From IMG/VR virus record IMGVR_UViG_3300029641_000003: 64,000 nt of DNA. One strand, 5' to 3'. The notes below the pieces were generated by a model. The model had not been told where the DNA came from and ran no database searches. It saw only the letters and a program-made list of their open reading frames with translations. Position 1 is the stretch's first letter. Every line of letters starts with the position of its first letter. Of the stretch, positions 18,429-33,600 are shown one piece after another. The stretch is from a virus (lineage: Duplodnaviria > Heunggongvirae > Uroviricota > Caudoviricetes). The position numbers and the translations under genes were made by a program.

Positions 18429-19000
18429 AAAACCTCCCAGTCAGTAGCGATAATATCAACACCAGTTGCAAACCAGTCTGTCTGTGCCTGTAAATCCCCA
18501 TTCATCATTACCAGGCGAGGCATAACCATCACATCACAACCTTCAACAATATCGAATGCCTCTTCCGGCAGGAATTCGACGAGCTTTTCTTTGCTGCCAA
18601 CACTGCCACGGAGCATCGATATATAGCTCCCTTTAGGCCATGATGTTCGCCGGGCATCAAGCCCCTTCATCATCCAGTAAAAGGCCGATGAGAACGGGAT
18701 GTTCTTTTTGGCGATGAGCACGTTATTCGCTTCTGTGTACTTCAGGAACTTAATTAACCTTACCATTGACTCGGATAACGCAATGTACGGCTCATGATTG
18801 ATTGCTGACACGCTTACGCCGTGCAGTCCAACACTTACCACAGTCATATCACCGTTCTGTGCGGTTTCGATGTTGACGCCTTTACGAACTAACGCTGCAT
18901 AAAGCTCCTCGCGCTTTTGCGTCCAGCATTCTCGTCGCCCTATAAAGTCACTCAAAACGAGATCATCTTCTGAATACGCGTTATCGTTCGCCGTTAACAT
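18425..19000 (-). CDS. two-domain protein with C-terminal DUF2829/Tad2-like domain
   Basis: 191 aa; C-terminal ARRTSWPKGSYI ... TDWFATGVDIIATDWEVF resembles the 10121..10783 C-terminus. Confidence 0.55.
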   Translation of the reverse strand: MLTANDNAYSEDDLVLSDFIGRRECWTQKREELYAALVRKGVNIETAQNGDMTVVSVGLHGVSVSAINHEPYIALSESMVRLIKFLKYTEANNVLIAKKNIPFSSAFYWMMKGLDARRTSWPKGSYISMLRGSVGSKEKLVEFLPEEAFDIVEGCDVMVMPRLVMMNGDLQAQTDWFATGVDIIATDWEVF

Positions 19001-19454: not shown

Positions 19455-19530
19455 TGGTGGCCCCTACCGGACTTGAACCGGTGACCGTGCGATTATGAGT
19501 CGCCCGCTCTAACCACTGAGCTAAAGGGCC
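19455..19530 (-). tRNA. tRNA with CAU anticodon (Ile2-like, or Met)
   Basis: Reverse complement GGCCCTTTAGCTCAGTGGTTAGAGCGGGCGACTCATAATCGCACGGTCACCGGTTCAAGTCCGGTAGGGGCCACCA folds as cloverleaf; resembles recalled E. coli ileX. Confidence 0.8.
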
Positions 19531-19539
19531 AGATTACTG

Positions 19540-19668
19540 TTAATTACGCTTACGCTTTTTGCCAGAACCGCGTAAGGCTTTTGCCGCTTGCTCTACCCCG
19601 TATGCAACCACCAGCAGAAACAATAATGTCCACTCCGGGTTTTTATCGGCAAACGCCCAAAAATTCAT
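19540..19668 (-). CDS. small protein (42 aa) with hydrophobic core and basic tail
   Basis: Read by eye: MNFWAFADKNPEWTLLFLLVVAYGVEQAAKALRGSGKKRKRN; ATG overlaps stop of the 77-aa gene upstream. Confidence 0.3.
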   Translation of the reverse strand: MNFWAFADKNPEWTLLFLLVVAYGVEQAAKALRGSGKKRKRN

Positions 19669-19901
19669 CACTTACAGCCACCTTGCATTTCCTCGGATAA
19701 TTCATTGACTTTAGTGCTCAATAAGTAATCAAAGTAAAGATAAAACACAAAAGTAACGATAGTGCTTAAAGTGTCTGAAATTGCGTATTTCAGCTCAGGA
19801 AGCATGACAAAGCAGACAAATAGCGGAAGAAATAACTGCACTATGCACAGACTCTCCTTCCACAACCATCTATATCTGAAGTCTGACAACAAAAACTCCA
19901 T
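19668..19901 (-). CDS. small membrane protein
   Basis: 77 aa with two hydrophobic helices. Confidence 0.4.
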   Translation of the reverse strand: MEFLLSDFRYRWLWKESLCIVQLFLPLFVCFVMLPELKYAISDTLSTIVTFVFYLYFDYLLSTKVNELSEEMQGGCK

Positions 19902-20026
19902 TGCTTGAAACTTTATTAGATTGCGGTGCCTGGTGCCTCCAGGTGACGTTAACCAGTTAACAATTAACGCCGGGATGTTTGACTTAACTATTAAGGAAAA
20001 TTGTTTTAACTGTTCCGCGTGCGCTT

Positions 20027-20059
20027 AGCCGCATTCACCGCAATGGTAAGAGCATTTGG
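20027..20059. repeat. tRNA-cluster repeat, copy B
   Basis: AGCCGCATTCACCGCAATGGTAAGAGCATTTGG; related copies near 19211, 20383 and inverted near 20465. Confidence 0.5.
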
Positions 20060-20149
20060 CTGGCTGGGCGGCGATGACGCCTGTACGCATTTGGTGATCC
20101 GGTTCTGCTTCCGGCATTCGCTTAATTAGCCAAATACTCTTAACGTTGC

Positions 20150-20236
20150 GCTGGCGGAGAGTAATGGAATCGAACCATCATCGCTTGCGCAATGGGACGG
20201 TTTTCAAGACCGCTTGAGCACCATGCTCCCTACTCT
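20150..20236 (-). tRNA. tRNA-Ser (UGA anticodon), long variable arm
   Basis: Acceptor stem GGAGAGT/ACTCTCC plus G-CCA; anticodon arm CGGTCTTGAAAACCG as in recalled E. coli tRNA-Ser; D-arm atypical. Confidence 0.6.
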
Positions 20237-20382
20237 CCAGTGATTGTGGTGGTCGGTACTGATCTCCGACTGCGCCTCTTTTTTTCATAGCCCATAAGGC
20301 CGGTCAGTGCGCTTGATGACTGAGGCATCGATATTTACTACGCCGCCTCGTTGCCATAGGGCGGACTTGCGCGCCAGCAACG

Positions 20383-20486
20383 CGCATTCACCACAACGGA
20401 AAGAGCATTTATGGCTCGCATCGCGGGAAGCGGGAAAAAACCCACGGTAGAGAGTCGAACTCTACAAATGCTCTTACCTGTTGTGT
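20383..20486. repeat. inverted pair of the tRNA-cluster repeat (copies C and D)
   Basis: CACCACAACGGAAAGAGCATTT ... AAATGCTCTTACCTGTTGTG flank a GTAGAGAGTCGAACTCTAC hairpin 3' of tRNA-Thr. Confidence 0.45.
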
Positions 20487-20562
20487 TGGTGCCGGTTAAC
20501 GGACTCGAACCGCTGACATCCTGCTTACAAGGCAGGCGCTCTACCAACTGAGCTAAACCGGC
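20487..20562 (-). tRNA. tRNA-Thr (UGU)
   Basis: Reverse complement GCCGGTTTAGCTCAGTTGGTAGAGCGCCTGCCTTGTAAGCAGGATGTCAGCGGTTCGAGTCCGTTAACCGGCACCA. Confidence 0.85.
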
Positions 20563-20564
20563 AT

Positions 20565-20639
20565 TGGCGATGGTGGATGGATTCGAACCACCGACCAGTT
20601 GGTTAACAGCCAACTGCTCTACCACTGAGCTACACCATC
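20565..20639 (-). tRNA. tRNA-Asn (GUU)
   Basis: Reverse complement ...GTTGGCTGTTAACCAAC...GGTTCGAATCC...CACCATCGCCA; abuts tRNA-Thr. Confidence 0.8.
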
Positions 20640-21984: not shown

Positions 21985-23193
21985 TTATTTCCCGTAAAGA
22001 TTTTCAACTCCACCGTTCTTCTTATCCCACTCGTTCGCCCATACCCGGCAAGCATCAATTATTTCCTGACGGCGATCGCCCTGCATGAACGGAATGCTTT
22101 CATGAAAGCTGCTTGGAATGCAGGCCACACTGAACACTGTATCAAACTCAGTCTGCTTGATTGCCTCCAACGTCTCTGGACGCATTTTCAATTCGTCGAT
22201 CGGTGCATCCTTAGAGTCCATAATCCGGCGATGCAAGCGTGGAAAATCCGTTTCAAGGTACGCCATAATTTTATCTGCCAGGCATTCGTCTATGTCGGTA
22301 TTCCAGTCAGTTTCGAAGCCAGGAATTCGGTAGTAAAGCGGCGTTCCCCATACTGACGGGATCACATCCATCGTCAGCAGGCGGCTGGTTCTGATTTGCT
22401 GATGGTAATTTGCCGTCAGCAACGCTTCGCCACGTTGCCCAGTCTCCGCGACCAGACCATGCGGAAACTCATGGATATAGGCAATAGCTTCTCTTCCGTC
22501 ATACATTAGCGGGAATGTCTCTGGCCTTTGCCCCATGCCACAGGCGCGATTCAGATCATGACCAAGCTCTGAGCACTCTCGTTTCAATGTTTCAATAATG
22601 CTCTGCGCCGCTGCTAACTTTTTACGCAGTGTGACGAGTTCGCCTTGATACTCAACGCATTGCTGATTTAGCTTGGTTAAACGCTCTTTTAGTTCCCGAC
22701 GCTCTCTTTTCAGCGTGCGGTTATCTTTCTCCGCAACATCCAGTCGTTTTGTCAGGCTTGGCGGATAGTCTTTTTTGTAACGACTCAAATCGACTTCAGC
22801 AGATTTGCGCAGTGTATTTGCCTGCTCAAGACGCGCCTCCAGATTGCCGATCTCATTACGCATATTCGCGGCAAATTGATTAACTGCATCCCCCAGGCTT
22901 TCAACTGTCGCTGATACACCAGTGACTTGAGAAAAACGGATCAAGCCATCATTAACGGCTTGCTGATATTCCTCAAACTGATCCACCAGCTTATTGTAAT
23001 CAACTGCCCCATCATCAAGGAGCTGGTTGATTTCCGCCACCAGGTTATCTGTAGTGGCAATGACGCTCTCATGCAGTCGCTTTGACAGGTCATCGCCCGG
23101 ATTTCGTTTCTGTATAAGCGCGATTTGTGTCCGCAGCGTTTCAATTGCGGTTGAGATGATCTCCAGGCTTGATGATTCTACTTGCTGACTCAT
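21985..23193 (-). CDS. coiled-coil protein, flanked by operator-like sites
   Basis: 402 aa; N-terminal half heptad-rich; operator-like motifs at 23214..23228 and 21952..21983. Confidence 0.65.
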   Translation of the reverse strand: MSQQVESSSLEIISTAIETLRTQIALIQKRNPGDDLSKRLHESVIATTDNLVAEINQLLDDGAVDYNKLVDQFEEYQQAVNDGLIRFSQVTGVSATVESLGDAVNQFAANMRNEIGNLEARLEQANTLRKSAEVDLSRYKKDYPPSLTKRLDVAEKDNRTLKRERRELKERLTKLNQQCVEYQGELVTLRKKLAAAQSIIETLKRECSELGHDLNRACGMGQRPETFPLMYDGREAIAYIHEFPHGLVAETGQRGEALLTANYHQQIRTSRLLTMDVIPSVWGTPLYYRIPGFETDWNTDIDECLADKIMAYLETDFPRLHRRIMDSKDAPIDELKMRPETLEAIKQTEFDTVFSVACIPSSFHESIPFMQGDRRQEIIDACRVWANEWDKKNGGVENLYGK

Positions 23194-23213: not shown

Positions 23214-23228
23214 TTAGTTTTCTAACAT
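23214..23228. promoter_or_regulatory. operator-like motif
   Basis: TTAGTTTTCTAACAT, 20 bp upstream of the 402-aa gene start. Confidence 0.55.
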
Positions 23229-23302
23229 ATTTTATTAGTATGCAATTTCAATAAAAAGACTCAGGCAACAAAAAACCCGCCAACTGGCGGGTTTATGACC
23301 GT

Positions 23303-23629
23303 TTAGACGTGTTGGAGTAGCATGTATGCCATATAAATCAAAGCTATCAGTACGACAACTACCTCTGAAATTCTAAACGCGCGCTTTACTATCTGCCGCT
23401 CACCGTGGGGTATACCATCCGAGTATTCCTGATCCGTCATTTTCCCCAGCCAGCTTACCGATAACAGAGCTGCATTCTCACTCATATCAAGTTCACTTAC
23501 GGCCTCTCGTATAAGTGGAGCGGTTACTTTCCTGGAAGCAACTTTCATGGTTATGCTTCTGGTTCTTCCGGCGTCATCAGCAAACGTCAGATTTACGTGG
23601 TGTTTTCTGCTCAATGAACAAACTCCCAA
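23303..23629 (-). CDS. small C-terminally membrane-anchored protein
   Basis: Likely starts at internal ATG 23548 (MKVASRK..., 81 aa); C-terminal helix VVVVLIALIYMAYMLL. Confidence 0.45.
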   Translation of the reverse strand: MGVCSLSRKHHVNLTFADDAGRTRSITMKVASRKVTAPLIREAVSELDMSENAALLSVSWLGKMTDQEYSDGIPHGERQIVKRAFRISEVVVVLIALIYMAYMLLQHV

Positions 23630-23811
23630 TCATTGGCTTTCGCGCTTTCCGGGGTAATGCATACCTTGTCGCCGGTAACTATGTTTCGGGCTTCTAATGC
23701 CCCATCATCCATCTTTTTAAGCTCTATACAGAAAGAATGAGGCCATGAGCAGCGACGAGCAACAACGTTAGCACCGGCAGGGATAAGTTCAGCCACGTTA
23801 AGTAAACGCAA
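23611..23811 (-). CDS. small DUF2829/Tad2-like protein
   Basis: 66 aa; VARRCSW near N-terminus and C-terminal ESAKANDWEFV echo the two larger paralogs. Confidence 0.45.
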   Translation of the reverse strand: MRLLNVAELIPAGANVVARRCSWPHSFCIELKKMDDGALEARNIVTGDKVCITPESAKANDWEFVH

Positions 23812-23825
23812 AACGATTTCTCCGT

Positions 23826-24272
23826 TTAATCAAGATTTACATATTCCGTGATAGCTTTTATGGCTTCATCGGCACTGCGCGCCTCAAAGCAGTAATAGCC
23901 TGCTTCCGTGAGGCGAGTCATCCAGACGAGCTGTTCGGGAGTCAGACGGTTTCTCCCGTGCTTCATCTCAATGCGCATTCCGTGATACCCACCACGAGCA
24001 AGGTCAATAGAAAGGTCCGGATAGCCCTTCTTCTGACCTTCTGCCACCATCTTAATGGCTGTCCTTTTGCCTCTCAGGCCGCCGTTCGGTGTTGAGTGTG
24101 TGTGCTCATACACGTATCGCATGTTGCGATACAGCCAATCCAGAACGCGAACCTGTTCGTAATGTTCGTAATTCCGTTTTAATAAGTCAGGTTTTCTTTC
24201 TAACTCTCTCAGTGCAGCAGCGTGCGGGGATATTTCAGAATACGCACTATGATGCCTGCGTCTTCGCATCAA
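23826..24272 (-). CDS. VRR-NUC domain nuclease
   Basis: 148 aa; GYPDLSIDLARGGYHGMRIEMKHG fits PD-(D/E)xK / VRR-NUC pattern; operator-like motif at 24271..24283. Confidence 0.7.
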   Translation of the reverse strand: MMRRRRHHSAYSEISPHAAALRELERKPDLLKRNYEHYEQVRVLDWLYRNMRYVYEHTHSTPNGGLRGKRTAIKMVAEGQKKGYPDLSIDLARGGYHGMRIEMKHGRNRLTPEQLVWMTRLTEAGYYCFEARSADEAIKAITEYVNLD

Positions 24273-24283: not shown

Positions 24284-24458
24284 AAACCTCCTTAATTCAT
24301 AATCACGATAATAACAAGAGCGTTAGTTTTATCAAAACCGGGGGGAATACTACTAAAGAGATAGGTGGATGCAACAGGTCGGATTTGTTTTTAGAGCAAA
24401 TGGTGATAAGGGTCAACAAGCCGGGTAAATTGTATGTCATTTACCCAACTTGTTATTT

Positions 24459-24719
24459 TTAATGGTTTATTTTATCCGGTTCGTTAATTTCCGTAACCGC
24501 CTTGTCGATAGCGATCATCCATCCTTCATAGGATAAATCATCAACAAGCCCCACCAGCTTATCGTCAGTGTGCGGAAAATAAATCCATCCCCATTTCGAA
24601 GGGTTTTCTATATGCCGCAGGGTAAATACCCGCTTATAACGGTGGTATTCAAGGGCGTATCCCTTCCCTTGTGAGTACGCTTTTAAGTCGTCGATCGTAA
24701 ACCTACGATTCTTTCGCAT
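24459..24719 (-). CDS. hypothetical protein
   Basis: 86-aa ORF downstream of darB, same strand. Confidence 0.5.
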   Translation of the reverse strand: MRKNRRFTIDDLKAYSQGKGYALEYHRYKRVFTLRHIENPSKWGWIYFPHTDDKLVGLVDDLSYEGWMIAIDKAVTEINEPDKINH

Positions 24720-24721
24720 GG

Positions 24722-25156
24722 CTACCCCACGATTCGATATTTCTCTATAGACTCGTCGTAACTTGTGTATACGTATGGCTCTGTATCATCAGCATAAGGC
24801 GCGACTTCCAGAGCATGAACGGGATTGTATACCGCGTCATTTTCCAGGCGATCGCTCGAATACAGATGCCCGGCTAAAACCGTAAGCGCCGGGCGACTCA
24901 TTTTGTAGATCTCTGCCACATCACTATCTACAACTTGTCCAAATGATATGTCGCCGCGCTCCAGCAATAACGTTTTAAGCGCAGGCCACCACGGCCCATA
25001 AAGGTGATAAAGCTGTGGATCTCTTTTCAGCCTTTCCACCATGCCATCCAGATATGCATCCAGAAACGCCTCTTCACTCCTGCCATTGAGCGCCTGCGGC
25101 AAAATGTCCTCAAGGTAGGATTCCGTCGGTTTTACAGTGTCAATTAATGTCGTCAT
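24722..25156 (-). CDS. hypothetical protein
   Basis: 144-aa ORF immediately after darB. Confidence 0.5.
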   Translation of the reverse strand: MTTLIDTVKPTESYLEDILPQALNGRSEEAFLDAYLDGMVERLKRDPQLYHLYGPWWPALKTLLLERGDISFGQVVDSDVAEIYKMSRPALTVLAGHLYSSDRLENDAVYNPVHALEVAPYADDTEPYVYTSYDESIEKYRIVG

Positions 25157-25192: not shown

Positions 25193-28100
25193 TTAGGCCG
25201 CATCGGCGATTATTTTACGCAGTTCATCTACCGAGTAACGCGTAGATACCATCCATGCCGGACGGTCAAAGTTCACATCAGCAACCGGGTTTGCTTCAAA
25301 ATTCCAGAAACGCCCGCCAATCTTCTTAATCGCGTCTTTGGCGTTTCGTATTGTCGAGGAACCAGGTTGGTCGGCAATGAGATAAACCGCGCCAACGTCC
25401 TCGCTGACGCTCCACCAGCGCCCGCGAACACGCGCCTTAGCGCGAATCGGCTTATCATTAACCACAATGATATAGTCATCATTCGCCGCTTCATCAGCTC
25501 TGGCTTCAGCCACTGCCGCCTGCTCTTCTCTTTTGCTTTCAGCCTGTTCAAGCCTTTCCGCGATCTCTGATTCGGTGGCCCCGCCGTTTTTCAGCGATAC
25601 ATAGTCTTGCCACGTAGCTGATTTGAGCGCATCCGGCAACTCATTCACATAGTCACCGTCTTTCAACTCACGGGCGCGGCGGGTAGCCATTTCTACCAGG
25701 CGATTAACAGAAACAGCATCAGCAAAATCGTCCTTACTAATTTTTTCATCAAATGCATTGATGACAGCCCCCACCTTAATCCACTGTGCTGCCGGTGATT
25801 CCAGGGGGTTATCAGCCTGGACTATGGCGAGTTTCGCTCCATCTACCCCATTATTCGCCAGCTGTTCCAGTGCCGCCCATCCATCTGCATCACTGAGTGA
25901 TTTATATTGCTCAAACAATGCATCGCGCCAGGCCACCAGCGCAGAACGTGTTTTTTCGATCTTCGTCTTAATTTTCGCGATCTTGACCTGATTAAACATC
26001 CGTTCAATATCATCGATATTGCTAAAGGCTTTCATCCTGCCCTGGAATAAACGGTATGCCAGCACGGTCCTCCAGAATGATTCCAGACCTTCTCCGGACG
26101 GTTTGCGGAACAAGCTAAGAATATCTTCAGAAGTGACTTTATTAAGCGAACGACCTGACAGACCACGCCCAGCCATCCAGTTTTCGAACTCCTGGGCAAC
26201 ATCATCCATCGTTGCCTGTGCGCCCCATGCCTGCATTCCCTGGATGTAATCATACCCATACAATGCCTGGAGGAATCCCTCACCGTCCACGATATTCAGC
26301 GGGTTATCACTGGCTTGTATTTTTGCCACTTCACGCTTCAGCGCCTCATCGTTGCCATCTGGATATATCCATCGTTCAGGTGCTATATCCGATGCTCGCC
26401 CGATTTTTTGGCCTATCACGCCATCATAGGCCGATGACAGCGCGATCTGACCATCATCTGTGCGATATGCCCAGTATTTAATAGCTGACCCACCGCCCCA
26501 TGCATTACCAGGTTTACCAGCAATAACATTCATTACCCCATTGCGAATAGCATCATAGAACTGATCGCGAGTAAGTATTGTTGATAGCTGGTGGCACTGA
26601 ACACCACGCGCAGCCGTTGCGCGCGATTCAGCTACCCCCTCTTCAAAAGTTACCGCTTCAATCACAGAGTCAAACGGCAATGTAACGATTGACCCCGGTG
26701 ATCGAGCGTAACGACTTGCTCTATCCAGCCAGGCGATACGGCAGAGGTATTGTGCTTTTTCACCGTCAATTTTTTCCACCCGGACAATCGCTGTTGTTTC
26801 GCGATCATCAATGACTGCACGGTAATAACTACCTTTATGCAACAGGATATTCTTGTCAGTGCGCATATATTCCTGTGGGTTCTGAATAACATCGATACTG
26901 ATATCCAGCACACCAGACTTAATAGCGCGCTCCACATCACCACGAGAGCGTTTCATTATGGTATCCGCGTCTTTTGCCCTGGTGATCGCAAACCGCAGCA
27001 CCCGCGCACGTTTTCTGTAGCTACTCAACTGCTCAAGCGCGAATTTTTGCCCATTCCTGTTCGTACCCGCTTTTATCAGGTCGTCAAGATTTCGCTGGTA
27101 ATACTCTATCTGTTCCATCGCGCTTTTCAGTTCTGTCTCCATCATGCCGATATCTTTTCCAGCGGCGTTTGCCGCTTTCAGGTAGATATCGAGAGCATTG
27201 TTGGCCTCGCGCTGTGCTTTCAGTTTCAGACGTTCTTCACGCTCTTGCGCCTGGCGAGCCATGATTGCGCGGCGTTCTTCCGGGTTTGCCGCCAGCATAA
27301 TGGCGCGTTCATCAGCATCATCCGCATCACCATTGGCGATCTCTGACATGTCGGAGGTCATCACCATCTTGATCCAGTCTTTCTTACGTTTCAGCGTATC
27401 CAGACGGAAGTCGTCGAATGTGCCTTTGCCACAATAGTAGTGAACATTGACCTTCTCTTGCGGTGAACCTACGCGCGCACCGCGCCCATTTCGTTGGTCG
27501 ATACTGGCTGGTGTCCAGGGTAGTGTCAGGTGGTGGATATCGGTTGTCCCGATATGCAGGTTAATACCTACTTCAGCCTTCTTGTTACAGATAATGATGC
27601 GCGTGCGCCCTTCGTTATAGTCGGCGGCAATGCCTTCCATACCCTCAAGGCCAGCATCATTTTTAGCTGAGAGATAATCCTCATATTGGGCAAGTTTGCT
27701 GTAGTAGGTTTCCCATGCCCCTTCTTTGTATTCACCGTTTTTATTCGGAGTAGGTTCAGTCGGCTTATTCACCTTCTTCAGCTTGATGCCGCCAGCCTGG
27801 CTAACGGTCGTCGCATTGATAATGCCTATCTCCTGCTCCGGCATTTGCAGTGCACTGGCGATAATACGGCGCAGCTTCTGGTGCTGGGCTTTTTCATCAA
27901 TGAAGACAATTTGTTTACCGTTCTTCAGACCTTCACGAAGGTTTTCGATCAGCGCGGCATACTTCGGCGGGATGGGGTGTGATACCTGCTGCAGATCAAT
28001 CCCGGCGGCAGCAATGGCCTTCAGTATTTCAGCTTCCAGTTCAATGCTGGCGCGTATTTCAACATGCACCGGATGTTCACTAAAGGTGGTCTTCACTACC

Positions 28101-31100
28101 TTGCTGGTACGTGTATTGACCAGTCCACCAGCGCCGTCTTCTTCGACCTCGTCTGCATCATCTGCCACTTTACCGCCAGCTACTTTTGGCAGGGCATCAG
28201 CAATAGCTTTTACCTTGTCTGCAAGCTCAACGGGGAACTGGAATGTAATCGCACTGGCATACAGATCCGGATCTATAGCAACCTTATCCATGTCGCGGAT
28301 GATGGAGAAGATGAAATCATCCGGTTTTTCGTTTGTGATATGCCCGTTTTCATCAACCGTCAGCGCATCTTTACTACTTAACTCCTGTGCACGCTTACGA
28401 AGTTCTTCATAAGCAGCCTCCTGCTCCCCTGTCATCGGGATCTGCAAGGTATTCTCGACAATATCAGGGATTTTAACCGTCGCCCCGACGTCCGCAGCAG
28501 TCTTCAGAGTAGTCCAGCGATGGAAAATACCACGCAGGCCATCAAGGTTCTGGAAGCCAACCAGCCCCTGCTTCTCTTCCACTTCCCCGGAAATTTTCTG
28601 GACCTGAACTGTGGCTGTTTTACCAAACACACGAACGAAATCATCAGGCGTAATGATGCCCATGCGCATCCACTCTTCCTGCGGAATGACAGTAGACAGC
28701 ATGTTGAAGGCATCAATCGGACTGTTCACCAGCGGTGTTGCCGTCAGCATGACTACACCACGCCCGTTGTTGCGTTTCATCATGTACGCAGCTTTTACAG
28801 CCATGTCGCGGGCCATCTTGGATACTGCCGGGTTAGGCAAATATGCCAGTTGTCCCGCTTCACGCCCGGCATTAAAGGAGTTGCGGTAGTTATGCCCCTC
28901 GTCGGCAATCACGCTATCGAAGTTCATATCCTCAAAGTACGGGATATTCTGCTTCTTCGTTGTACCGGTATTCGCGGCCTGATCCTTAATCTTGTTCTTC
29001 TTCTGCGCATCACGGTGTTTACCAGACGCCAGGTCAAGACGCCCCATTTCCACAGCATTAAAGACAGCTTGCTGTGAGTTCTCCTCGATGGTTTTTTCTC
29101 GTAGCGGGATAGACGCGAATTGTTCTTTTGTCATGATGACCGTTCGCCAATTTGACGACGGGATCATGTTCATGCGCTGAACGATAACGGCGCTGGCGGA
29201 CTCTTTCACAACATTTCTGGTAAGAGGCTGCCCGTTACTGTCGAGGCGGGGTTCGCCATTTTCATCAAGCACCGGCGCGGTCAGAATATTGCCGTCTTCA
29301 TCACGAACCTCATCCAGACCGATAAACATCATATTGGCGAAGGCATCAGCACTGTAGAAGCTCTGTGCCTCGTGATACCAGTTCTGATAAACCGCCTTCG
29401 GAACAACAATACACGTGCGTTTAGTGCGACCTGTTTCGAAGTTATACGCCTCAAGCGCAAGCGCAGTCGTGGTTTTACCCAGCCCGGTACCAAATCCCAT
29501 GATGCCGCGCCCATCTTCTGACAAGCGACGAACTTCTTCATTCTGATAAGTCAGAGGAATGCGCTTTCCACTAATCCCTTCCAGGCCAAGCGGTGCGTTA
29601 GAGTGCGTAAACGGAATGAAGCCATTGAATGCGTCGTTATAGTCACGGGCTATCTGATCCGCCTGCGGGTGGGTGCGTAACCAGTCGTTAAAACTAACTT
29701 CCAGTTGAGCAATTTTATCCAGGTACTCGTTAGCGTTCTGCCCACGCGGTTTAACACCGTTCAGGTAGTTTTCTAACTGGTTCAGGAAGCCGTCTTTATT
29801 GTTGGCCTTCTTGAACTCATTCCCGTTTTTGCCGTTTACGGTTCGTAGTTGATAGCCGGTAAATACCCCGTCCTTACCTTCGTAATCGTCCGGAGATACC
29901 AGAATGCCATCGACGACCTTCAGATCAGGTTCAGTGTACTTAAACTCGTCATAGCCCTGCTCTGCCAGGAACTCTTTTATCAAGCGGCGATCCAGCCAGC
30001 GGGCGTTCAGATTAACGGTGACTTTATTTAGTGGCGTGAAAATGCGTTTCTCTTCGATTTTCGCCAACTGACGCTCAAAGTTCGCTTTCTGCTCACCTGT
30101 TGACGCATCACGCCAACCCACCAGCAATGTTGTTTTGGTTGCAATATCGCCGCTGGTGGCGCGGTCCATCGGCAGCAGGCAGCCATACCCATCAATAGCG
30201 ATATCATCAAATTTCGCCAGGTATTCAAGGGCCGCGTCGTCGTCCTCTGGCAGTTCACCAGCAAACGCCTCACGAAAGTCGCCCAGCGTTATAGGATTAA
30301 GGGCTACATCACTGAAAAGATGTGCTATCACTTGTTCAGGACGTGTAAAGTCAATACCGGCAGCACCATCCGTTACATCAAGTCGCCCTGCCAGAAGGTC
30401 AGAAGTGGAACCATCCTGTTTCACATTGCCAGTGAACGTCATCCAGTTTTTAGCGCCAGCTTCTGCAAGCCCATTCAGCTTAATCGCGTGCGGTGGTCCA
30501 TACTTCGCAACTTCTGCTGCCGCCAGGCGGGATGCATCTGCCAGTTTGTCATCAACGTTCACCCCCAGGTTACGCAAATCAAGTGCCTTGTTGATCAACT
30601 GCCCTATCAACGCACCGCGCATAACGCGCTCCCTGTCTTTTTCTCGCTGTTTGCCAGCAAAGCGAATCATTGCTGCCACTTCATCACTGACAACCGATGG
30701 ATAGTCGGACGCGATCGCCGATATCTGGTCCCATGACAAAGCCAGAATCCCGTTTGTTGACTGGAACGCGATCTGCAGATCGCCAAACGTCGAAACACCA
30801 TATCGACTTACATCAAGCGCGGAGGATTTGGTTGTCGTGTCCTTAACCCATTTCAGACCATCAAACTCATGCCAGATACCGCCTACAAGGCGTTTATCGC
30901 CCACTTTCGCGCCCTGCCATGCCTGAGTAGTTACGCCGAGCAAATCCCAATTGATGCGACTATCAAAGCGACGAGATAGCGCGGTTTTCATCGACTCATT
31001 GGATACACGACCGTCTTTTTTCACCACCAGGGTATTGCGGAAGCTGGTGCGTTCCATGTCGCCGTAAACAAATCGCTTCCCTTCGGTTGTAAACCATTTC

Positions 31101-32041
31101 CCTTTGAGGAAGGTATCCCAAAGGACGTTTGCCGATTTGAGCGTTGCATCATCCGTGTCGGGGATCATCTCCAGGAAGGTTTCCGGGTGTTTACGCAATA
31201 CCCATACGTCCACCACCGTATCTGTACCGGATTCGCTGAACGTACCAGAAGGCATACGATGCGCGCCCAAAAATTCCGCTTTACGGCTGACTTTATCGCG
31301 CAATTTTTTGTATTTCGTACCATCGGTCATGCCATTCGGCACCACCAATACAATTAGTCCACCAGGCTTAACCTTGTCGATTGTGCGCAGCACAAAGTAA
31401 TTGCCAACGTTCTTCTCGTTTGCATATGCCGGATCAAGCCCGGCGACACCGGAACGCCCTTCACCAAACGGTACGTTACCAACAGCGTGATCATACATTG
31501 CGTCTTTCGCCGCCAGCGCCTCAAACGCCCCGATATTCACATCGTCTTCCGGGTGCAAAAGCTGGTTTATTCGACCGGAAATCGGAGACAGTTCGGCGCT
31601 GGTCATTATCATGCCCTGCCGTTTTGTCTCCTGGAAAATACCTGTGCCCGCTGATGGTTCCAGTACGTGCCCGCCATCAATACCGTAGTCAGCAAACAGA
31701 TCCCATATACCTTCAGCCATAAACTGTGGCGTGTAGTATTCGTATTGGCTGCCCTCACCATCTGTCAGGCCGCCTTCACCGGTATACCCGGCAAGAATCT
31801 GACGTTGTTCGTCAGTTAATTTCGCCCCATCGAAGCCGGGCGGAAGGGAATTAAGAAGATTTACTGCGGCGTTGTTTGCTGCCCGGCGTGTTTTCTGAAT
31901 ACTGACGCCATCGACTTTCTTAACGCCAAAGGTCACTACAGCTCGCGGTTTATGCAACCGACTAACAATTTCAATCAGCGCCCCAATGCTGGTGGCCTGG
32001 CTAATTGAATCAATTATTTTGTCCAAAGGAAGCCCCCTCAA
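25193..32041 (-). CDS. darB: DarB-like antirestriction protein (N6-adenine methyltransferase + helicase)
   Basis: 2282 aa; MTase motifs VLEPSAGTGIF and NVPFG; helicase Walker A GFGTGLGKTTTAL and DEGH box VIADEGHNYRN; size matches P1 DarB. Confidence 0.9.
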   Translation of the reverse strand: MRGLPLDKIIDSISQATSIGALIEIVSRLHKPRAVVTFGVKKVDGVSIQKTRRAANNAAVNLLNSLPPGFDGAKLTDEQRQILAGYTGEGGLTDGEGSQYEYYTPQFMAEGIWDLFADYGIDGGHVLEPSAGTGIFQETKRQGMIMTSAELSPISGRINQLLHPEDDVNIGAFEALAAKDAMYDHAVGNVPFGEGRSGVAGLDPAYANEKNVGNYFVLRTIDKVKPGGLIVLVVPNGMTDGTKYKKLRDKVSRKAEFLGAHRMPSGTFSESGTDTVVDVWVLRKHPETFLEMIPDTDDATLKSANVLWDTFLKGKWFTTEGKRFVYGDMERTSFRNTLVVKKDGRVSNESMKTALSRRFDSRINWDLLGVTTQAWQGAKVGDKRLVGGIWHEFDGLKWVKDTTTKSSALDVSRYGVSTFGDLQIAFQSTNGILALSWDQISAIASDYPSVVSDEVAAMIRFAGKQREKDRERVMRGALIGQLINKALDLRNLGVNVDDKLADASRLAAAEVAKYGPPHAIKLNGLAEAGAKNWMTFTGNVKQDGSTSDLLAGRLDVTDGAAGIDFTRPEQVIAHLFSDVALNPITLGDFREAFAGELPEDDDAALEYLAKFDDIAIDGYGCLLPMDRATSGDIATKTTLLVGWRDASTGEQKANFERQLAKIEEKRIFTPLNKVTVNLNARWLDRRLIKEFLAEQGYDEFKYTEPDLKVVDGILVSPDDYEGKDGVFTGYQLRTVNGKNGNEFKKANNKDGFLNQLENYLNGVKPRGQNANEYLDKIAQLEVSFNDWLRTHPQADQIARDYNDAFNGFIPFTHSNAPLGLEGISGKRIPLTYQNEEVRRLSEDGRGIMGFGTGLGKTTTALALEAYNFETGRTKRTCIVVPKAVYQNWYHEAQSFYSADAFANMMFIGLDEVRDEDGNILTAPVLDENGEPRLDSNGQPLTRNVVKESASAVIVQRMNMIPSSNWRTVIMTKEQFASIPLREKTIEENSQQAVFNAVEMGRLDLASGKHRDAQKKNKIKDQAANTGTTKKQNIPYFEDMNFDSVIADEGHNYRNSFNAGREAGQLAYLPNPAVSKMARDMAVKAAYMMKRNNGRGVVMLTATPLVNSPIDAFNMLSTVIPQEEWMRMGIITPDDFVRVFGKTATVQVQKISGEVEEKQGLVGFQNLDGLRGIFHRWTTLKTAADVGATVKIPDIVENTLQIPMTGEQEAAYEELRKRAQELSSKDALTVDENGHITNEKPDDFIFSIIRDMDKVAIDPDLYASAITFQFPVELADKVKAIADALPKVAGGKVADDADEVEEDGAGGLVNTRTSKVVKTTFSEHPVHVEIRASIELEAEILKAIAAAGIDLQQVSHPIPPKYAALIENLREGLKNGKQIVFIDEKAQHQKLRRIIASALQMPEQEIGIINATTVSQAGGIKLKKVNKPTEPTPNKNGEYKEGAWETYYSKLAQYEDYLSAKNDAGLEGMEGIAADYNEGRTRIIICNKKAEVGINLHIGTTDIHHLTLPWTPASIDQRNGRGARVGSPQEKVNVHYYCGKGTFDDFRLDTLKRKKDWIKMVMTSDMSEIANGDADDADERAIMLAANPEERRAIMARQAQEREERLKLKAQREANNALDIYLKAANAAGKDIGMMETELKSAMEQIEYYQRNLDDLIKAGTNRNGQKFALEQLSSYRKRARVLRFAITRAKDADTIMKRSRGDVERAIKSGVLDISIDVIQNPQEYMRTDKNILLHKGSYYRAVIDDRETTAIVRVEKIDGEKAQYLCRIAWLDRASRYARSPGSIVTLPFDSVIEAVTFEEGVAESRATAARGVQCHQLSTILTRDQFYDAIRNGVMNVIAGKPGNAWGGGSAIKYWAYRTDDGQIALSSAYDGVIGQKIGRASDIAPERWIYPDGNDEALKREVAKIQASDNPLNIVDGEGFLQALYGYDYIQGMQAWGAQATMDDVAQEFENWMAGRGLSGRSLNKVTSEDILSLFRKPSGEGLESFWRTVLAYRLFQGRMKAFSNIDDIERMFNQVKIAKIKTKIEKTRSALVAWRDALFEQYKSLSDADGWAALEQLANNGVDGAKLAIVQADNPLESPAAQWIKVGAVINAFDEKISKDDFADAVSVNRLVEMATRRARELKDGDYVNELPDALKSATWQDYVSLKNGGATESEIAERLEQAESKREEQAAVAEARADEAANDDYIIVVNDKPIRAKARVRGRWWSVSEDVGAVYLIADQPGSSTIRNAKDAIKKIGGRFWNFEANPVADVNFDRPAWMVSTRYSVDELRKIIADAA

Positions 32042-32178: not shown

Positions 32179-32664
32179 ATGGCAAACATTGAACCTCGCT
32201 GGCTTATTGAGGCCCGTAAAAATATTGGAGTCACCGAAATAAAAGGAGCGAAACACAATCCAGAGATCGTTCAGTTCTGGCGGGATATTAAGCGCAGCGG
32301 AATTAAAGACGACGAAACGCCGTGGTGCGCTGCATTTGTTGGTGCAATGCTGGAACGTGTAGGTATCCGCTCAACAAGATTTGAGTCGGCAAAATCCTAT
32401 CTGGATTGGGGCGAGAAATTAGATACACCGGCATACGGATGTATCGTTGTATTTACCCGCGTAGGCGGTGGGCACGTAGGCTTCGTTGTCGGACACCGCG
32501 CCAATGGCGATCTGCTTGTCTTGGGTGGGAACCAGGGGGATGCTGTTAATATTCGCGCATTCCCAACATCAAGAGTGTCTGGCTATCGCTGGCCTGCTGG
32601 CGAACCACGCAATACAGCTCTGTTACCAGTCGGAGACGCAGCAACCTCAACTAATGAGGCATAA
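32179..32664 (+). CDS. NlpC/P60- or CHAP-like putative cell-wall hydrolase
   Basis: 161 aa; ETPWCAAFV (Cys) and GGHVGFVVG (His) spacing typical of this peptidase class. Confidence 0.5.
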   Translation: MANIEPRWLIEARKNIGVTEIKGAKHNPEIVQFWRDIKRSGIKDDETPWCAAFVGAMLERVGIRSTRFESAKSYLDWGEKLDTPAYGCIVVFTRVGGGHVGFVVGHRANGDLLVLGGNQGDAVNIRAFPTSRVSGYRWPAGEPRNTALLPVGDAATSTNEA

Positions 32665-32695: not shown

Positions 32696-32908
32696 TCAAG
32701 TTACGATCCAATCATTACCGACTGCATCCGCCGTCGATAAATCGACTTCCCGGATCTGGTATCCATTAATACAAAACCATCCAGTAGTAGAGCTATTATC
32801 AGGCCAGACCCATACACCAACACTCCATGCTTTACGGCGGCACACTTCAGCCTGTCCTTCCCTGATTTTTTTTACCGCCTGCATGATGTCCATCACTCGC
32901 CTCCCCAA
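32696..32908 (-). CDS. hypothetical small protein
   Basis: 70-aa ORF overlapping the end of the Rha-like gene. Confidence 0.35.
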   Translation of the reverse strand: MGRRVMDIMQAVKKIREGQAEVCRRKAWSVGVWVWPDNSSTTGWFCINGYQIREVDLSTADAVGNDWIVT

Positions 32909-33600
32909 CCGATTACCTGGAATTGCCCCATCCTTGGGTGATACCAGCGTTTTCCTCGGTGTTCAGCCTCCGACATCATCAGGGTAAAGGCATTCATGAA
33001 GGGAGATAAGGCCACAATAGTACGACGCGACAATACCCCCTCTGGCGTCAAAAACTCATGCGTATCTGTGGGGATCCGGTAAGCGTTGACCAGGTTACGG
33101 CATTTGGCTTCAGTCAGGCCGCATTTCGCCGCCAGTTGGCGGTAGCCAATGTAGCCTTCTGGTATGTTGCCTTTCTTGATCTGCTCGACGGTTTCAGCGA
33201 CCTGGCTAACCTTTGACTCAACAGCATGAAGCCGCTTTTGCTGCTGAACTGCATTCGCAGCCATTGCAGCGATCATCTCTATTTCGGTCAACGGCTGGCG
33301 TACTTGTTCTTCCAGTTCGCGCCAGCGGTCCACCAGCCGGGCGGTGAATTCGGGAGAGAGCTGCGCAACGACAATAATGCTGTCTCGTTTGCCTTGCTCG
33401 CCTTCGAAGACGTAAGCCTCAACGCCACGACGCAATCCTAAGTTATTGATTTTTTCGAAAACAGCCATTGGCGGTTTTCGGATAATGCTTCGAGCAACCA
33501 TACGCTCAATACTACGTTTAACGTCAGAGTGTTGACTTCCCACCAGCTCCGCAATCTCAATGCTGGTCATTGATAGTTTTTCGAGAATGCAGATATCCAT
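32893..33600 (-). CDS. Rha-family regulatory protein / antirepressor-like
   Basis: 235 aa; N-terminal MTSIEIAELVG... typical of Rha proteins. Confidence 0.65.
   Translation of the reverse strand: MDICILEKLSMTSIEIAELVGSQHSDVKRSIERMVARSIIRKPPMAVFEKINNLGLRRGVEAYVFEGEQGKRDSIIVVAQLSPEFTARLVDRWRELEEQVRQPLTEIEMIAAMAANAVQQQKRLHAVESKVSQVAETVEQIKKGNIPEGYIGYRQLAAKCGLTEAKCRNLVNAYRIPTDTHEFLTPEGVLSRRTIVALSPFMNAFTLMMSEAEHRGKRWYHPRMGQFQVIGWGGE

Follow-up and report, generated by a model that had tools for sequence, protein, structure and literature searches.

The 64,000-nucleotide (nt) stretch of DNA analysed here, referred to in the following as the window, belongs to a virus of the class Caudoviricetes (IMG/VR record IMGVR_UViG_3300029641_000003). 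On its minus strand, between the genes for a VRR-NUC nuclease and a putative membrane protein, it carries a short open reading frame (ORF) for a protein of 66 amino acids (aa), which we call ORF66 and whose translation is MRLLNVAELIPAGANVVARRCSWPHSFCIELKKMDDGALEARNIVTGDKVCITPESAKANDWEFVH. From the sequence alone, ORF66 had been put forward as a stand-alone protein resembling DUF2829, the Pfam family PF11195 that is now named Tad2-like. Among phage sponges, proteins by which the immune signals of bacteria are trapped, Tad2/DUF2829 is one of the most widespread families, and it has diversified to several pockets and ligands: glycocyclic ADP-ribose (gcADPR), histidine-ADP-ribose (His-ADPR), N7-cyclic ADP-ribose (N7-cADPR), cyclic dinucleotides and cUMP/cCMP. 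We find that ORF66 is a conserved gene, that its product probably shares its ancestry with the Tad2 fold, and that it lacks two features by which Tad2 sponges are defined.

The region around ORF66 is 79% identical to Escherichia phage D6 and 98–99% identical to non-mobilisable plasmids of ~90 kb that come from E. marmotae and E. coli, which places the window within a D6-like, P1-related phage-plasmid. Along the minus strand, the genes follow one another in the order darB-like, ulx-like, D6 orf13-like, VRR-NUC, ORF66, pmgR-like and pmgS-like (Table 1), and ORF66 adjoins the darB/ulx anti-restriction module.

Gene structure and conservation of ORF66

ORF66 opens with a TTG codon (23811-23809) behind a Shine-Dalgarno sequence, and this ribosome-binding context together with the start, ACGGAGAAA..TTG, is kept in the ORF66 copies of D6, E. 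fergusonii and Shigella. The protein matches phrog_7206 over its full length (residues 1-66 on positions 1-66 of the 66-position profile; E 3.7e-43, 146 bits) and is the orthologue of D6 orf11 (D6_11, ASR76380.1), a 'hypothetical protein' of 66 aa with 71% identity to it. From 98% down to 33% identity, the orthologues all have a length of 66 aa, which rises to 76 aa where the start lies further upstream. By tblastn, 119 plasmids in PLSDB carry the gene, from Escherichia, Salmonella, Shigella and Enterobacter, and D6 (two records) is the sole phage found among 50,697 phage records. Homologue searches, both word-indexed (with the single sequence and with a 12-sequence profile) and as an exhaustive profile search of 1.84 billion representatives, yielded about 13 clusters, all of 55–76 aa; matches of 254–507 aa in these searches were repeat proteins and were discarded as spurious.

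The reading frame is under purifying selection. Between ORF66 and its D6 orthologue, dN is 0.21 and dS 1.27 (dN/dS ~0.16), with 13, 9 and 30 substitutions at the first, second and third codon positions; for two more closely related copies, the values are 0.028 and 0.33 (dN/dS ~0.09). The product, with a mass of 7.3 kDa, an isoelectric point of ~6 and no hydrophobic segment, is a small cytoplasmic protein. In the nearest plasmid (NZ_CP104667.1, 66500-70500, 99% identical), the RefSeq annotation by the Prokaryotic Genome Annotation Pipeline (PGAP) calls neither ORF66 nor the pmgR-like gene downstream of it and leaves a 630-bp 'empty' gap, probably because both genes start with TTG. Other database records do annotate ORF66, including those of D6 and many plasmids. 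Two further explanations of the signal were rejected: a structured RNA, because no Rfam family matched in the region, and an artefact of the overlapping pmgR-like gene, because just 4 nt are shared and the frame itself is under selection. ORF66 is thus almost certainly a real protein-coding gene, as originally predicted. No function or domain is assigned to the phrog_7206 family in Pfam, NCBIfam, PADLOC or PHROGs, and a literature search for D6-specific work on orf11 returned nothing specific.

A conserved three-gene unit

The stop codon of the VRR-NUC gene (TAA, 23828-23826) lies 14 nt ahead of the ORF66 start. The encoded pmgM-like protein clears the gathering cut-off of PF08774 (26.2 bits against 23.8; E 9e-6), which confirms the nuclease proposed at this position. 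Its ORF opens with TTG-ATG (MMRRRR...); since PGAP calls the gene one codon shorter in a sister plasmid (444 nt), the true start is probably ATG 24269.

On the other side of ORF66, the pmgR-like protein ends in a hydrophobic 19-mer, ISEVVVVLIALIYMAYMLL (Kyte-Doolittle mean 2.42), which fits the membrane protein of the original prediction. The overlap of 19 nt that had been given for the two genes results from calling the longest possible downstream ORF, which starts at TTG 23629. The PHROG alignment of this longest product begins at residue 6, the annotations of D6 and, by PGAP, of an Enterobacter plasmid both place a 4-nt overlap at the junction (ATGA in the latter), and the window itself reads CAT-TGA there, with a TTG inside. 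Together, these observations set the start of the pmgR-like gene at TTG 23614 and reduce the overlap to the four nucleotides TTGA. This is an ordinary arrangement for translational coupling, and ORF66 is apparently coupled to the pmgR-like gene in this way.

Upstream of the VRR-NUC gene, we find a sigma-70-like promoter match and, just past the pmgR-like stop codon, an intrinsic-terminator-like hairpin with a T-run, both of them consensus matches only. Framed by this predicted promoter and terminator, VRR-NUC, ORF66 and the pmgR-like gene would form a single three-gene unit. Their order is kept in all relatives examined, namely D6, the Enterobacter, E. fergusonii and Shigella plasmids and two metagenomic (Logan) contigs. 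In the latter, ORF66 is only 33–35% identical, and one metagenomic contig has 4-nt overlaps at both ORF66 junctions. The place of ORF66 in the wider series from darB through ulx and orf13 to pmgS is likewise constant.

Relationship to the DUF2829/Tad2 family

Within the ORF66 family, L3, G13, R19, W23, G47, A59, D61 and W62 are invariant and R20 is nearly so. Most of these positions coincide with invariants of canonical Tad2 proteins and agree with them in order and in secondary-structure element: G13, R19/R20, W23, A59, D61 and W62 correspond to G, R22, W25, A82, D84 and W85 of SPO1 Tad2. ORF66 has two motifs, R-x-x-W close to its N-terminus and A-x-D-W-E at its C-terminus, in common with two larger proteins of the window in which a Tad2-like domain is fused to a further domain (described below).

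Profile comparisons point in the same direction. When the ORF66 family is aligned with two Tad2 alignments in hhalign, it scores 18.6 and 17.5, where column-shuffled controls give 9.1±1.8 and 9.6±1.8; none of 150 shuffles reaches the observed values (z ~4–5), and both ends of the alignment are in register. A hidden Markov model (HMM) of the ORF66 family, run on the complete set of 771 stop-to-stop ORFs in the window, has as its best non-self match a second minimal ORF of 65 aa (E 3e-4, aligned over 1-62), followed by the 191-aa fusion protein (E 0.011). Canonical Tad2 HMMs, which we built from PDB sequences and their IMG/VR relatives (83–96 sequences), readily find the two fusions, the 220-aa protein with E-values of 4e-28 to 2e-44 and the 191-aa protein with 9e-17 to 7e-21. 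Against the same models, two more distant members of the ORF66 family, P0006 and P0010, reach p-values of 1e-5 and 3e-4; P0010 and P0011 also weakly match phrog_643, as does ModTad2. Scans of ORF66 and its family against NCBIfam and PADLOC gave nothing useful, and no annotated DUF2829 protein was reached by a profile search of the whole library or by two indexed searches. Run against the PDB sequences, the family profile returned only chance matches to major histocompatibility complex proteins.

Two AlphaFold (AF2) models of ORF66, with predicted local distance difference test (pLDDT) values of 84.1 and 84.8, consist of a helix (3-8), four strands (15-20, 27-33, 39-43 and ~49), a second helix (54-57) and a final strand (62-65). 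The published Tad2 topology comprises α1, strands β1–β5 and a helix between β4 and β5, and the models display the same N-terminal helix, antiparallel five-stranded sheet and helix between β4 and β5; α2 is absent. In BFVD, the first rank among the matches to the ORF66 model goes to a DUF2829 protein of 66 aa from Pectobacterium phage CBB (E 0.011, probability 0.99, 26% identity over 62 columns), and the matches at ranks 9 and 37 are likewise named Tad2-like.

Because the shuffle-tested profile–profile score, the cross-matches of the family HMM and the predicted fold topology all converge, each being weaker evidence by itself, we consider it likely that ORF66 is a true homologue of the Tad2 fold. 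The resemblance to DUF2829 and the echoed motifs of the original prediction hold in this sense of a remote relationship, and not in the sense of a match to the standard family HMM.

The ligand pocket and the β2–β3 insertion

The gcADPR pocket of SPO1 Tad2 is lined by W25, N26, I63, T65, D67, H71, W73, S76, T78 and D79. That of HgmTad2 comprises W21/N22, W87, L88 and S90/T92/D93, and its W21A/N22A and S90A/T92A/D93A mutants lose binding. The ligand site is highly conserved in the family, of which only ~1% of the proteins are predicted to be non-functional. In our canonical set of 97 sequences, W73 is found in all and S76 in 95; N26 and D79 are also near-invariant (95–97 of 97), with counts that are biased by the inclusion of both residues, and of neither W73 nor S76, in the search patterns. 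Of this pocket, the ORF66 family keeps solely W25, as the invariant W23. The residue that follows, at the position of N26, is P, Q, A, N, G or V, and the equivalents of W73, S76, T78 and D79, when anchored on A-x-D-W, are V50, T53, E55 and S56 in ORF66 and variable across the family.

The second feature concerns the segment between β2 and β3. In SPO1 Tad2, an insertion at this point (residues 36-59) carries α2 and the dimer interface, and in HgmTad2 an insertion of 41 residues (32-72) forms the cyclic-dinucleotide pocket. ORF66 has a hairpin of 4–5 residues (MDDG) instead. Surface positions that are conserved specifically in its family are E30, K33, G37 and T46-G47-(D/E), the last of which lies in the β3–β4 loop, a loop that contributes to the pocket in Tad2. 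As it fails two defining features of a Tad2 sponge, the pocket residues and the β2–β3 insertion, ORF66 should not be filed as one. The sponge function implied at first is therefore not supported, and a canonical Thoeris sponge is improbable. A sponge-like mode of action of another kind may still apply, given the family-specific surface positions and the variety of pockets and ligands that Tad2 relatives have evolved.

Other DUF2829 domains in the window

Both fusion paralogues named in the original prediction exist, and each has a Tad2-like domain at its C-terminus and an N-terminal domain with no assigned function. In the 220-aa fusion, this C-terminal domain is canonical and retains GWNG...PWVPSVGD...DW, so it looks like a competent one as far as its sequence goes. 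A full-length homologue of this fusion occurs in Salmonella phage SJ46, the domain recurs with 100% identity in many IMG/VR contigs of ~80–100 kb, and a dUTPase gene adjoins the fusion gene. For the 191-aa fusion, a homologue search with the C-terminal domain retrieved near-identical fragments only; a gene for an Lpa late-promoter activator lies nearby.

The 65-aa ORF, which the original prediction did not mention, is a second minimal stand-alone candidate. It matches phrog_7385 (E 4e-47) and phrog_643 (E 0.0024), and aligns with the full PF11195 profile below threshold (E 0.011). Equivalents of S76 and D79 are kept in it, and that of W73 is not. In a tblastn search of the same 50,697 phage records, it was found in D6 only. 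The end of a Rha/Ant-like gene directly adjoins its start or overlaps with it.

Genomic context

Table 1. Genes and sequence features of the window
Feature	Position	Strand	Description
Fusion paralogue 1	10121-10783	-	220 aa; PF11195, E 1.6e-22, 80.2 bits
dUTPase gene	10798-11292		
Lpa late-promoter activator	17545-17937	-	PF25716, E 4e-50
Fusion paralogue 2	18425-19000	-	191 aa; C-terminal Tad2-like domain; PF11195, E 5.2e-10, 40.2 bits
tRNA cluster	19455-20639	-	Met(cat), Ser(tga), Thr(tgt), Asn(gtt)
pmgS-like gene	21985-23193	-	
Promoter match upstream of pmgS	23224-23251	-	sigma-70-like, TTGAAA-16-TATGTT
Terminator-like hairpin + T-run	23273-23294	-	just past pmgR-like stop; consensus match only
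pmgR-like gene	23303-23614	-	103 aa; TTG start overlaps ORF66 stop by 4 nt (TTGA)
ORF66	23611-23811	-	66 aa; phrog_7206; orthologue of phage D6 orf11
Shine-Dalgarno sequence of ORF66	23820-23823	-	GGAG; 8-nt spacing to TTG
VRR-NUC nuclease gene (pmgM-like)	23826-24272	-	PF08774, phrog_2363, phrog_5702 'Holliday junction resolvase'
Promoter match upstream of VRR-NUC	24308-24335	-	sigma-70-like, TTGATA-16-TATTAT with TG, 10 of 12; consensus match only
D6 orf13-like gene	24459-24719	-	86 aa
ulx-like gene	24722-25156	-	phrog_1629
darB-like gene	25193-32041	-	2282 aa
CHAP-domain protein	32179-32664	+	PF05257, E 2e-7
Second minimal DUF2829-like ORF	32696-32893	-	65 aa from ATG 32893, or 70 aa from TTG 32908
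Rha/Ant-like gene	32893-33600		

Several features of this neighbourhood stand apart from the question of ORF66. The tRNA cluster is made up of four genes according to ARAGORN and of three at the Rfam gathering threshold, and D6 carries Ser, Thr and Asn tRNAs at the corresponding place. Just upstream of the pmgS-like gene, the sigma-70-like match overlaps GAAATTGCATACTAATAAAATAT, which loosely resembles the P1 C1 operator consensus, ATTGCTCTAATAAATTT. The CHAP-domain gene is transcribed divergently from darB. The homologue of the orf13-like gene in plasmid NZ_CP085744.1 (2133-2390, 85 aa) is tagged by the Resistance Gene Identifier layer of PLSDB as 'farB, MFS antibiotic efflux pump, identity 100%'; this label is likely an annotation artefact, because 85 aa are too few for a pump of the major facilitator superfamily (MFS).

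Possible roles of ORF66

Taken as a whole, the data seem to us to fit somewhat best with a real gene whose product is a minimised, highly diverged paralogue of the Tad2/DUF2829 fold and acts as an accessory binder with a target other than gcADPR. In this scenario, ORF66 would be the middle gene of the VRR-NUC–ORF66–pmgR-like unit of D6-like (P1-related) enterobacterial phage-plasmids, translated from its conserved TTG with the help of a good Shine-Dalgarno sequence and coupled downstream through the TTGA overlap. Among the DUF2829 domains of the element, it would be the fourth paralogue, one that has kept the structural core and would have lost the β2–β3 insertion, with the dimer interface and cyclic-dinucleotide pocket found there in Tad2 proteins, along with the pocket residues N26, W73, S76 and D79. 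The small protein may well be oligomeric and may serve, beside darB/ulx, as an accessory counter-defence or host-takeover factor. Its target might be a small signal of another kind or else a protein, for which the adjacent VRR-NUC nuclease is one candidate. We slightly prefer the small signal because of the Tad2 ancestry and the four-paralogue repertoire, and even so a sponge-like binder with altered specificity is, when taken singly, only a tentative proposal.

Part of the evidence weighs against this interpretation. The near-complete loss of the gcADPR pocket described above is one such point, and any binding function or oligomerisation of ORF66 is something we infer. The HMM search that the original prediction had named as a check came out negative: PF11195, whose gathering cut-off is 25 bits, gives no match to ORF66 at E≤10 and reaches just 2 of 12 members of its family, below threshold and with a best E-value of 0.15. 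The canonical Tad2 HMMs do not detect ORF66 itself, which ranks only 23rd and 88th with them among the ORFs of the window. The hhalign probability is only ~5% (P 0.006–0.009), and a Foldseek search of the PDB with ORF66 has no Tad2 among the 50 matches listed and none at E≤0.001. Finally, the strict linkage to the VRR-NUC nuclease and the membrane protein could mean that the role of ORF66 is unrelated to immune evasion.

Of the alternatives, the most radical would be that there is no protein at all and that the conservation stems from overlapping or neighbouring genes or from a DNA or RNA element. The omission of ORF66 by PGAP in the nearest RefSeq plasmid and its non-ATG start might be read in this way. 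A dN/dS ratio well below 1 with an excess of third-position changes, the preservation of length, start context and stop at 33–98% identity, the annotation in D6 and many plasmids, the mere 4 nt shared with another gene and the want of an Rfam family in the region essentially exclude it. It is also improbable, if less extremely so, that ORF66 is a generic small barrel of the SH3-like type without any kinship to DUF2829 and that its R..W and DWE motifs came to look like Tad2 through chance or convergence. Such a coincidence would have to extend to most of the invariant positions, which match those of canonical Tad2 in order and structural element, to a score that no shuffled alignment equals, to a family HMM that picks out exactly the other DUF2829-like ORFs among 771, and to a viral structural match at rank 1 that is a DUF2829 protein of equal length with 26% identity. 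At the opposite end stands the canonical stand-alone Tad2: as a homotetrameric sponge, ORF66 would sequester 1''-3' gcADPR and thereby block type I Thoeris. The remote similarity of the fold, the invariant first pocket tryptophan (W23 for W25 of SPO1), the other DUF2829 domains of the element and the adjacent darB/ulx counter-defence genes all suit this idea. We nonetheless deem it very unlikely, given that N26, W73, S76 and D79, found in 95–97 of the 97 canonical sequences, are not kept in a site that the literature calls highly conserved and whose W21A/N22A and S90A/T92A/D93A exchanges cripple HgmTad2, that the insertion with α2 and its dimer interface has shrunk to a four-residue hairpin, and that ORF66 has no Pfam match.

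A serious rival, because of the invariant linkage and the coupling, is a role within the nuclease module. ORF66 would then be an adaptor, inhibitor or specificity subunit that works with the VRR-NUC nuclease, the pmgR-like protein or both in DNA processing or morphogenesis, and no sponge for an immune signal. The gene order is invariant down to 33% identity, one lineage has 4-nt overlaps at both junctions, and a single promoter–terminator unit is predicted. Moreover, the flanking genes are homologues of P1 pmgM, pmgR and pmgS, which are named 'putative morphogenetic', and small β-barrels are also typical of protein- and nucleic-acid-binding adaptors. Against this, the interaction with either neighbour is deduced from context, the pmg names are annotation-based, and P1 has pmgM and pmgR and no detectable homologue of ORF66, D6 being the only phage with one among the 50,697 records; the nuclease module thus works elsewhere without ORF66. 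We accordingly rate this role as possible and rather unlikely. Returning to the diverged Tad2-fold binder, its boldest form strikes us as doubtful: the ORF66 family might be an unrecognised minimal class of Tad2, a core barrel of ~7 kDa with a re-tooled inter-protomer pocket (W23 with E30, K33 and the T46-G47-(D/E) loop), which in Enterobacteriaceae would bind some other immune signal or else inactivate a protein. If so, a single phage-plasmid would carry four differently specialised DUF2829 modules.

A core-only Tad2 of 66 aa without the canonical pocket would mark the lower size limit of the fold and serve as a natural experiment on the parts that oligomerisation and ligand capture require. 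Should ORF66 instead be a partner of the VRR-NUC nuclease, it would exemplify the recruitment of a sponge fold for another job. In either case, its significance is modest pending a ligand or partner. There is also a practical aspect: since Pfam, NCBIfam and PADLOC do not recognise the family and PGAP often leaves the gene uncalled, censuses of anti-defence genes in the clinically common phage-plasmids of E. coli and Salmonella miss it.

Comparison with known systems

With the characterised Tad2 proteins (SPO1 gp34.65, ModTad2 and SptTad2; PF11195), ORF66 shares the predicted core topology, the hallmark G, R and W residues of β1 and L12 and the C-terminal A-x-D-W, and it is likewise phage-encoded, small and acidic to neutral. 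It differs from them in its length of 66 aa, compared with 88–101 residues in the solved chains and 89 aa in native SPO1 Tad2, in the absence of the β2–β3 insertion with α2, in the loss of N26, W73, S76 and D79, and in scoring below the reporting threshold of Pfam. Compared with AcrIIA7/HgmTad2 (PDB 8KBI), it lacks the 41-residue insertion and equivalents of W87, S90, T92 and D93. ORF66 thus differs from every characterised member of Tad2 in size, missing insertion and pocket residues.

The agreement in size that had been noted between ORF66 and stand-alone Tad2 proteins does not extend to the solved Tad2/AcrIIA7 chains, which have 88–158 residues as deposited, and applies instead to DUF2829 proteins of 65–66 aa. 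Of these, a 66-aa protein of Pectobacterium phage vB_PcaM_CBB (A0A1L2CVD1) and a 65-aa Tad2-like protein of Siphoviridae sp. ctg5k4, the matches at ranks 1 and 9 in BFVD, belong to the same length class; unlike ORF66, they carry a DUF2829/Tad2-like signature in UniProt. The literature searched contains no functional test of such short forms. It is equally silent, as are the searched libraries, on a link between the ORF66 family and DUF2829/Tad2, the family itself being already in the databases as a hypothetical protein.

Within the window, the 65-aa ORF is as minimal as ORF66, and the 191-aa fusion shares with ORF66 an unusual S-W-P in place of the canonical G-W-N. The fusions, however, retain the W...S/T..D pocket motif and the insertion and pass the Pfam cut-off, none of which is true of ORF66. 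The closest counterpart of all is the phrog_7206 protein encoded by D6 orf11, a direct orthologue that occupies the same place between pmgM-like VRR-NUC and pmgR-like genes and from which ORF66 differs in nothing of substance.

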